A model generated the notes under the pieces. That model did not search any database. It saw nothing but the letters and a program-made list of their open reading frames with translations, and was not told where the DNA came from. Of a stretch of 24,318 nt of DNA, positions 11,523-16,102 are shown in pieces. Source of the DNA: Chloroflexota bacterium (GTDB lineage Bacteria > Chloroflexota > Limnocylindria > QHBO01); contig JAHFBB010000001.1 of the NCBI GenBank assembly GCA_023250255.1, forward strand, positions 1 through 24,318, read 5' to 3'. Positions within the stretch are counted from its first letter, which is position 1. The number at the start of each line of letters is the position of its first letter. A program made the translations under genes and the position numbers.

Positions 11523-13025
11523 GTGTTTCGTCGACTTTCTGCCGCCGTGGGCAGTCTGCTGGTGGTTGCCACCATGCAGGCCGGCGCCCTGGCCCCATCG
11601 GTCCATGCCACGGTGGAACCGATCAAGGTGACCATCATCGTGGGTCCGGTTGGTGCCACCACGGCAAATTACCGGAGCCGTGCTGACACCTTGGCTGCAA
11701 CTGCCGAAGCAGCGGGCGCGGTGGTCACCAAGGTCTACAGCCCTGATGCCACCTGGGCGAACGTCATGACCGCGGTGAATGGCGCCAACGTGGTGGTGTA
11801 CTTGGGGCACGGCAACGGTTTCCCAAACCCGTACAGCGCGACGCTCGGTCCCGAGCGGGTGGACGGCTGGGGCCTGAACCGGGTTGCCGGCATTGATCCG
11901 GCCGACCCGACCGGCGATGGTGACAACTGGTCCACCAATCTGGCGTACTGCGGCGAGGCCGCCCTCGAGGGCAAGCCCCTGCCGGCCGGCAGTCCGCAGG
12001 CCACTTATTGCGCCGGCGGCCCGATTACACCGGCCCCGGCCTGGGTGATGATCTATTCCAACGCCTGCTACACGCCCGGTGCCGGCGAGACCGAATCGAC
12101 CACGCCGACCAGCGAGTCGACGGCCCTGTCGCGGGTGGCGAACTATTCGCGTCCGGCCCTTGCGTTGAACGCGGGTGCCTATTTCGCCAGCGACATCGGC
12201 TCCGGCTCGGTGCTGGACAAGGTCCTGCGGAATCGAGACCTGGGATTCGGCGACATTTTCTCCATGGCCAGTGGCTTCAGTGCCGTCGCCCTGCGCACGT
12301 TCCCACACCCGACCAGCGCCGGCGACCAGGTCTGGATCCAGCGCACCAGCGGACCCGGCGGGATCCAAAGTTACTGGTACGCCTTCGGCGGCGATCCGAC
12401 GCAGACCCCGAACGGCGGTCATGCCGCGCTGAGCGGCGATTACATCCGTCCCACGGTCCTCAGCCGCACCCCGGCCGCCGGGGTGACCACGGCCTCGATG
12501 AGCACCACCGTGACGATCGGCTTCTCCGAGCCGGTCAGCGGGGTGAATGGCACATCGGTCCGAGTTCGGGATACCCTCAGCGGGGGCCTCTACAGCGGGA
12601 CGGTGACCTACGATCCGGGGACGGCCACCGCCACCTTCGTCGGCGCCTTCCCGTTCCAGCCGGCGCGCCGCTACCAGGTCGAACTCAGTGGCGCGATCGG
12701 CGACAGCGTCGGCAACCCCCTGCTGGCGACGAGTTGGTCGTGGACGACGACCGCCTGGGAGGTCTACAGCCCGTGGCGCAGCGTCCGCTTCAGCCCGGCA
12801 TCGTTCACCGGCTACCGCTTCTACACCGGCGGGGTGGTCGCCGCCATGAAGGCCTGGGTGGTGACCGCCGACACGGTCGTCCAGGTCAGCCGCCGGGCCC
12901 GGATCCCCGGGCAGCCGAACGTCAGTGGCGCCTGGTACTTCCTTGAGAGCGGCCCGCTTGCCGGCTGGTGGGTCCGCGAACGCTGGAGCAACACCCCCGC
13001 GGGCTTCAACCCGACCCTGCTCTAG
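11523..13025 (+). CDS. Secreted protein: putative clan-CD (gingipain/caspase-like) catalytic domain, Ig-like (Big_5-type) domain and unrecognised C-terminal domain
   Basis: Signal peptide MFRRLSAAVGSLLVV...SVHA. Motifs 'VVVYLGHGNG' and 'MIYSNACY'. The C-terminal 192 aa are identical to those of the GH18 gene. TAGGTT lies 6 nt before the GTG start. Confidence 0.7.
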   Translation: MFRRLSAAVGSLLVVATMQAGALAPSVHATVEPIKVTIIVGPVGATTANYRSRADTLAATAEAAGAVVTKVYSPDATWANVMTAVNGANVVVYLGHGNGFPNPYSATLGPERVDGWGLNRVAGIDPADPTGDGDNWSTNLAYCGEAALEGKPLPAGSPQATYCAGGPITPAPAWVMIYSNACYTPGAGETESTTPTSESTALSRVANYSRPALALNAGAYFASDIGSGSVLDKVLRNRDLGFGDIFSMASGFSAVALRTFPHPTSAGDQVWIQRTSGPGGIQSYWYAFGGDPTQTPNGGHAALSGDYIRPTVLSRTPAAGVTTASMSTTVTIGFSEPVSGVNGTSVRVRDTLSGGLYSGTVTYDPGTATATFVGAFPFQPARRYQVELSGAIGDSVGNPLLATSWSWTTTAWEVYSPWRSVRFSPASFTGYRFYTGGVVAAMKAWVVTADTVVQVSRRARIPGQPNVSGAWYFLESGPLAGWWVRERWSNTPAGFNPTLL

Positions 13026-13047
13026 TCCGGCTGGGGGACTGCCGCAG
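12446..13047 (+). repeat. 602-bp direct repeat, copy 1 (copy 2 at 15501-16102, offset 3055 bp)
   Basis: Line-by-line comparison found no mismatch. The repeat runs from CCGTCCCACGGTCCTC to 22 bp past the stop codon (…GACTGCCGCAG). Confidence 0.97.
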
Positions 13048-16080: not shown

Positions 16081-16102
16081 TCCGGCTGGGGGACTGCCGC
16101 AG
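15501..16102 (+). repeat. 602-bp direct repeat, copy 2
   Basis: Identical by eye to 12446-13047. Confidence 0.97.

Follow-up and report, generated by a model that had tools for sequence, protein, structure and literature searches.

How do two neighbouring genes that encode different secreted enzymes come to end in the same 602 bp of DNA? This question is raised by a stretch of 24,318 nucleotides, hereafter the window, which is one whole contig (JAHFBB010000001.1) of a genome from the Chloroflexota class Limnocylindria (GCA_023250255.1, designated G000 below). The source genome is a fragmented metagenome-assembled genome (MAG; 252 contigs, 1.28 Mb, 81% complete) obtained from a groundwater metagenome. 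The two genes follow each other on the forward strand. Gene A (11523..13025) encodes a secreted protein with a predicted caspase/gingipain/CHAT-like N-terminal domain, and gene B (13156..16080) encodes a secreted protein with a GH18 domain. Both end in a tail made of a Big_5 domain and a domain that we call X. The comparisons described below make it likely that these tails, which are old and homologous, owe their identity to recurrent gene conversion between the two loci, or to unequal exchange.

When the window is compared with itself base by base at an offset of 3055, a single uninterrupted run of identity is found, in which positions 12446..13047 (copy 1, forward strand) equal positions 15501..16102 (copy 2, forward strand) over 602 bp. 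Right outside both ends, similarity is at background level. A repeat search and a BLAST comparison of the repeat with its own genome agree with this result (100% over 1-602), with just two copies in the 1.28-Mb MAG, and the repeat search detected no inverted repeats in the window. Chance is not an issue as a source of 602 exact matching bases. The run starts at position 12446, which is the last base of codon 308 in gene A, and continues through codons 309-500 (192 codons), the TAG stop codon (13023-13025) and 22 bp of 3' flank. Copy 2 is the equivalent end of gene B, with Big_5, X, the stop codon and 22 bp. The extent given by an earlier sequence-only reading of this DNA (192 codons, the stop and 22 bp of flank) is correct. 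That reading also pointed to a D-x-x motif encoded by both genes just before the break; this amounts to a single shared residue, a coincidence to which we give no weight.

Graph assemblers output a collapsed repeat twice with one consensus. This raises the question of how identical the two copies are. An independent assembly, the Logan k=31 contigs of the source run X1, bears on this point. In it, a separate 606-nt contig spans exactly 12446-13047, a second contig (12198-12475) joins the flank in gene A to the repeat and reaches 30 nt into it, and a third, coming from the gene B flank (14900-15500), jumps to 12446, the repeat start, and bridges the second left junction. The graph branches at the exact repeat edges and nowhere inside, the 602 bp forming one unbranched contig. 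It follows that the structure with two contexts is real and that the copies can differ only by a few isolated single-nucleotide polymorphisms (SNPs). At position 12503, the third position of Ser327, the Logan repeat contig has T where both window copies have C, a synonymous change; it is thus not proven that the copies are absolutely identical, and their similarity amounts to about 99.8% or more. Logan depth is about 5.4 on the repeat and 2.3-5.4 on the flanks, too low and too uneven to test for a twofold coverage. The "no mismatch" of the sequence-only reading therefore stands for the structure and its edges, although one or a few true differences may lie behind it. Likewise, assembly collapse, which it named as the main alternative, is excluded for the structure and retains its force only for the last few SNPs.

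The history of the two tails was traced in related genomes of the family (Candidatus Limnocylindria; designated by other G numbers), with 64 loci examined in total, namely the window, three others and 60 fetched from relatives. In each of the 59 loci long enough to show it, gene A is followed, in the same orientation, by a GH18 gene B; the remaining five hit a contig end before gene B. Four of these five short-read contigs (L044, L053, L062 and L063, from G096, G065, G050 and G056) stop 80-260 bp past the N-terminal domain of A, at the start of the tail, as is usual for short-read assemblies at a near-exact repeat, which suggests that near-identical A and B tails are commoner than intact assemblies show. 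An exact repeat of 835 bp is present at the orthologous place in G021, a genome of another genus that is assembled in 4 contigs and 97% complete. There, the copies lie at an offset of 3009 on a 1.43-Mb contig, and each begins where Big_5 begins and ends 6 bp after the stop codon. Between these two genomes, with 100% nucleotide identity of the A and B tails, and the many others where nucleotide identity is undetectable, the values are graded: G107 has 95% over 1143 bp and G071 has 92% over 828 bp, whereas G066, G067 and G073 have 84-92% and many genomes 72-80%. At the amino-acid level (Big_5 and first X), the values are about 100, about 100, 86.5 and 72.4%, followed by 25-44% in 12 genomes. Moreover, intermediate tail pairs are mosaic, with a perfect run of 280 nt in G071 and of 135 nt in G066, each beside scattered mismatches. 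Such mosaicism is not visible in G000, where the entire tract is identical.

In a tree of the Big_5 domains, the B tails of G021, G066 and G074 fall within the A-type clade, each as sister to the A tail of its own genome (support 100/97, 100/100 and 95/97), and the A and B tails of G000 are sisters at 100/99. Trees of the X domain and of the concatenated domains agree, with support for the G000 pair reaching 100/100. According to these trees, the homogenised cassettes are each other's closest relatives in at least four lineages. The within-genome sister pairs of G021, G066 and G074 imply at least three homogenisations after speciation in that genus, from A to B, in addition to the event in G000. 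Excess similarity within genomes is pronounced: the two G000 tails are about 100% identical, to be compared with at most 42% to any orthologous tail, and the same holds in G021, G066 and G074. Between genomes, the tails evolve faster than the enzyme heads, with a median identity of 37-40% as against 59-61%. Three features of concerted evolution are seen here, namely a similarity within genomes that exceeds the orthologous one, an old and diverged pair of paralogues, and mosaic tracts in relatives. The pair itself is old, Big_5 plus X tails being found in several genera and being 25-44% identical in 12 genomes. The sequence-only reading had proposed looking for concerted evolution in related genomes, and this is what they display, with homogenised pairs that are sisters within their own genome and a tail identity ranging from 25-44% of amino acids to nucleotide identity.

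From these data we infer a recombination mechanism, a wall-binding role of the tail and a rationale based on co-targeting. Homologous tails would have been present on both genes already before the diversification of the family. Recombination between the tails would occasionally copy one over the other, either by interlocus gene conversion or by unequal exchange followed by resolution, so that the tails would evolve in concert and the enzyme heads as ordinary orthologues. The window would then represent a lineage shortly after such an event. The tail would serve for surface retention, with Big_5 as an Ig-like spacer and one SH3b-like domain as the putative wall-binding part, on two secreted envelope enzymes whose genes are neighbours with the same orientation. 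Homogenisation may be tolerated, or even favoured, as both enzymes would be directed to the same envelope ligand, which apparently changes fast. The tracts of G000 and G021 are independent of each other, and each has its start at the Big_5 boundary, in frame, and reaches a few bases beyond the stop codon. These matching limits fit an exchange bounded by the extent of shared sequence; no motif common to the tract edges of the two genomes was found.

Several points, however, weigh against recurrent exchange between old tails as the account of the window. In G000, identity ends abruptly, 22 bp past the stop codon, and the flanks show no remnant of decayed homology; it is not obvious that a conversion tract limited by homology would have such edges. 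The exactness of the match may be partly a product of assembly, given the variant at 12503 and a depth of only about 5. In the Big_5, X and concatenated trees, the tails nearest to the G000 pair are B-type, with a best identity of 42% to a B tail and 36% to an A tail, and copying would accordingly have gone from B to A, but the approximately unbiased (AU) test rejects neither an A-type (p 0.167) nor a B-type (p 0.239) affinity. Copying from B to A was therefore dropped as a firm direction for G000. Furthermore, the event has no sister species by which it could be dated: the genus of G000 contains no other genome, and, among 5.8 billion proteins searched, the G000 tail matched only its own protein and one other, at 44% identity. 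Finally, the structural matches on which the wall-binding role of X is based are moderate (Z at most 6.3), and no SH3 or GW model of Pfam hits this domain.

Two other explanations bear on the G000 repeat itself. It is possible, though on the whole doubtful, that the assembler homogenised two tails that are highly similar (e.g., 97-99.8%) and wrote one consensus twice. The source is indeed a fragmented MAG of short contigs, the Logan contig differs at 12503 from both window copies, and the short-read contigs of several relatives that stop 80-260 bp past the A N-terminal domain indicate that assemblers struggle at the tail. Nevertheless, the k=31 graph holds all 602 bp as an unbranched contig that ends at the repeat edges, and an exact repeat of 835 bp occurs on a 1.43-Mb contig in the four-contig genome of another genus (G021). 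Moreover, homogenisation by assembly would turn "identical" into "nearly identical" and leave the biology unchanged. Rather unlikely, in our opinion, is a one-step duplicative replacement in the G000 lineage, where the tail and its 22-bp flank would have been copied by illegitimate or unequal recombination. Such an event would account for the sharp edges, for the lack of decayed similarity in the flanks and for a tract that runs 22 bp past the stop. It would also agree with the state of unconverted tails in relatives, which, at 25-44% identity, are too diverged for RecA-type exchange, and with the presence of one X in both G000 tails as compared with two (A) or three (B) in relatives. However, the G000 tract shares its in-frame start and its domain boundary with the tract of G021, which is independent of it. 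Relatives with mosaic and graded pairs show that the locus does undergo homologous exchange, and the necessary homology could stem from a previous homogenisation. With regard to the very recent gene conversion of older homologous domains put forward by the sequence-only reading, the graded identities and the sister pairs support both the recency and the age of the modules; conversion and duplicative replacement are not told apart in G000.

A third explanation concerns the use of the repeats rather than their origin. In the sequence-only reading, the repeats were viewed as a scar-free recombinational device that switches the GH18 gene on or off or changes its copy number. The logic of the sequence allows it: an exchange involving the two 602-bp direct repeats, which lie 3 kb from each other, would delete or duplicate a unit of 3055 bp and leave gene A intact, and RecA-dependent exchange between such direct repeats deletes or duplicates the intervening unit at a measurable rate. 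Yet deletion or duplication is mechanically possible for any direct repeat. Gene B follows gene A in each of the 59 informative loci, where it is never missing or doubled and no B-B tandem is seen, and most relatives keep the A-B pair without a nucleotide repeat, so that the repeat itself is not conserved. A Pfam scan of the 21 open reading frames (ORFs) of the window gave no recombinase, integrase or invertase domain. A deletion product would carry no novel short-range junction, which makes it invisible to the available contig data, and rare rearranged molecules are not detectable in this way. The cassette was also thought to include a promoter of its own for the GH18 gene. A scan of positions 11200-16500 revealed no sigma-70-like promoter and no terminator-like site between A and B, with the reservation that this consensus may not fit Chloroflexota promoters. 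The absence of a promoter-like site between the genes lends no support to a switch either; gene B may be co-transcribed with A. Altogether, we regard such a device as highly improbable. We also give very little credence to a combined scenario in which the population would make use of the identical tails to delete or amplify the GH18 unit of 3055 bp in a reversible and scar-free manner, homogenisation being favoured as both enzymes track one fast-changing ligand.

Recurrent exchange between old homologous tails, to which we return, calls for a description of what is exchanged. The Big_5 domain of gene A (12447..12752, forward strand; amino acids 309-410) is recognised by Pfam PF13205 with an E-value of 8e-11. 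The matches in A and B score 43 and 44.5 bits for a cutoff of 23.6 and cover positions 3-105 and 2-105, respectively, of the 105 positions of the profile. The X domain follows at 12756..13007 in gene A (forward strand; amino acids 412-495), and the second X copy lies at 15811-16062 in gene B, on the same strand. X comprises about 85 residues, is all-beta and was delineated with a hidden Markov model built in this analysis. It has no match in Pfam (SH3_3, SH3b and GW included) or NCBIfam, and a profile search of the PDB returned nothing; within the X family, 5 of 51 members give a weak match to Choline_bind_4 only. The family has the consensus G-T-H-T-G-Y ... G-x-W-A-G-Y-W-L-x-E-S, and A and B proteins carry one to four copies of it in tandem. 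Among loci with the same type of tail, a common architecture is the N-terminal domain followed by Big_5 and two X for A, and GH18 followed, further on, by Big_5 and three X for B.

The fold of X was compared by two independent structure searches, with a model of predicted local distance difference test (pLDDT) score 85.6. Structural matches are the R2ab repeat of AtlE (Z 6.3), a Listeria autolysin (6.0), PlyGRCS (5.9), TagH-C (5.8), the SH3b domain of lysostaphin (5.6) and the GW domain of InlB (5.3). The top 15 of 48,161 chains are mostly wall-binding domains of the SH3b or GW type, from autolysins, endolysins and InlB, with Z values of only 5.0-6.3 and Foldseek E-values of at least 0.24; the rest of these 15 are TagH-C, the SH3-like domain of a fungal muramidase and a capsule-synthesis enzyme. 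Given these moderate scores, X can be proposed to be an SH3b-like module with a putative wall-binding function. It defines a domain family that had no name before, about 85 residues long and predicted to fold like SH3b, through which the envelope enzymes of Limnocylindria are probably retained at the surface. Homogenisation is also observed inside genes. In G046, gene A (L070) has three X domains, two of them identical and the third nearly so. In gene B of G104 (L043), the X1-X2 unit is duplicated in tandem, and a 918-amino acid protein of G009 (L037:5049-6425) contains an internal repeat of 300 nt that is 100% identical.

The head of the protein encoded by gene A is of a different nature. Read from GTG 11523, the gene encodes 500 amino acids, with a Sec signal peptide, an N-terminal domain with a clan CD-type fold, Big_5 and the SH3b-like X. 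The N-terminal domain (11592-12445, forward strand) belongs to a secreted protein and has no sequence match in Pfam, NCBIfam or the PDB, so that all leads come from structure comparison. Its model (pLDDT 92) is closest to SAVED-CHAT (Z 11.9), the CHAT domain of DdvA (11.0), gingipain RgpB (10.2) and legumain (9.6), with metacaspases, caspases and separase among the further matches (Z range 11.9-8.0). His96, in a GHG motif, is invariant in the 42 orthologues of gene A. Cys182, in an A-C-Y motif, is present in G000; this position is C in 33 of the 42 orthologues and H in the other nine. On the basis of the predicted caspase-hemoglobinase fold and of a dyad with His preceding Cys, the domain can be assigned to clan CD and would be peptidase-like, with putative catalysis. 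It is found in 164 of 176 genomes of the family, representing 24 of 24 genera, and its position beside the GH18 gene is conserved in all of these genera. This count includes six unpublished genomes (G004, G051, G052, G121, G122 and G191), which are used for no other claim and from which none of the fetched loci comes. Many genomes of the family carry in addition a second, short (about 300-335 amino acids) paralogue of this domain devoid of a tail, for instance at G018:C19:23983-24783.

The intergenic region between A and B (13026..13155, forward strand) starts with the 22 bp that belong to the repeat and contains a GGAGGTGA Shine-Dalgarno motif at 13138-13145. The ORF of gene B is open from 13102, and translation probably starts at the GTG at 13156, behind the GGAGGTGA motif. 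The resulting protein of about 974 amino acids comprises a signal peptide, GH18, fn3-like, SH3_3, FlgD_ig, Big_5 and X. The GH18 catalytic domain (13801..14541, forward strand) matches Pfam PF00704 with an E-value of 2e-29 and 103.7 bits. Its closest solved relatives are YdhD of Bacillus subtilis (3cz8, 7e-26), 4wiw, and YaaH/SleL (4s3k and 4s3j). Compared with the D-x-x-D-x-D-x-E motif of the family, B has D-G-V-N-L-D-F-E, with the second Asp replaced by Asn and with the third Asp and the Glu kept. As judged by these similarities, B qualifies as a GH18 enzyme of the YdhD/YaaH(SleL)-like, peptidoglycan-acting (spore-peptidoglycan) branch rather than as a chitinase, peptidoglycan being the predicted substrate.

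Upstream of A and B, the window carries, in this order, mreB, mreC, a GT2 gene, a gene for a PpiC foldase, an LCP gene and a GGDEF gene; a second LCP gene comes after B. A gene for a LytR-CpsA-Psr (LCP) protein lies upstream on the reverse strand (8462..9973; Pfam PF03816, E 2.4e-23). A GGDEF diguanylate cyclase gene (10053..11426, forward strand; Pfam PF00990, E 1.4e-37) directly precedes A, and the second LCP gene (16023..17510, forward strand; Pfam PF03816, E 1.1e-30) directly follows B, its real start being probably after 16102. The LCP genes thus bracket the GGDEF-A-B block, and mreB and mreC are located 6-7 kb upstream. On the whole, the locus looks like a neighbourhood for the attachment and remodelling of wall polymers.

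The concerted evolution that prokaryotic paralogues undergo through interlocus gene conversion or unequal exchange has been surveyed (Wang and Chen, 2018; PMC6053082). As in the cases considered from that survey, paralogues are here closer within a genome than to their orthologues, and the phenomenon recurs in separate lineages with identity tracts of different ages. However, only a C-terminal module is homogenised in the present case, the heads (clan CD and GH18) being unrelated, whereas the long-lasting cases considered from the survey are whole genes of core pathways. With regard to the module itself, the staphylococcal and listerial GW and SH3b modules (AtlE, Ami, InlB; lysostaphin/ALE-1), which anchor otherwise different surface proteins and autolysins to the cell wall, provide the best structural matches of the X model and are likewise C-terminal on wall hydrolases. 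Unlike them, X has no Pfam match to SH3_3, SH3b or GW; its Z values are moderate and its wall binding is putative. The slpA and slpB genes of Lactobacillus acidophilus and the emm-like tandem genes of streptococci have conserved wall-binding or anchoring 3' ends that recombine. There too, neighbouring genes of surface proteins have a near-identical C-terminal part for wall attachment that acts as a substrate of recombination. In those systems, recombination changes the variable head that is expressed or makes fusion genes, whereas no rearranged form is seen here in 59 related loci.

The locus therefore illustrates, cleanly and with good support across a family, a known kind of phenomenon, concerted evolution, here confined to the putative wall-targeting module of two otherwise unrelated enzymes, and no new mechanism is called for. 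One practical consequence is that trees or orthology calls based on full-length proteins of this kind will mislead; another is that the assembly of short reads into MAG contigs tends to stop at tails of this type. Two side products are perhaps more useful than the repeat itself, namely an unnamed family of domains with an SH3b-like predicted fold and a secreted protein with a predicted clan CD fold that is conserved across Limnocylindria. As for the A-B pair, it provides a well-documented natural example of concerted evolution at the level of a domain: throughout an uncultured class of Chloroflexota, the heads keep their orthologous histories, and one tail has time and again been copied over the other, perhaps in either direction.

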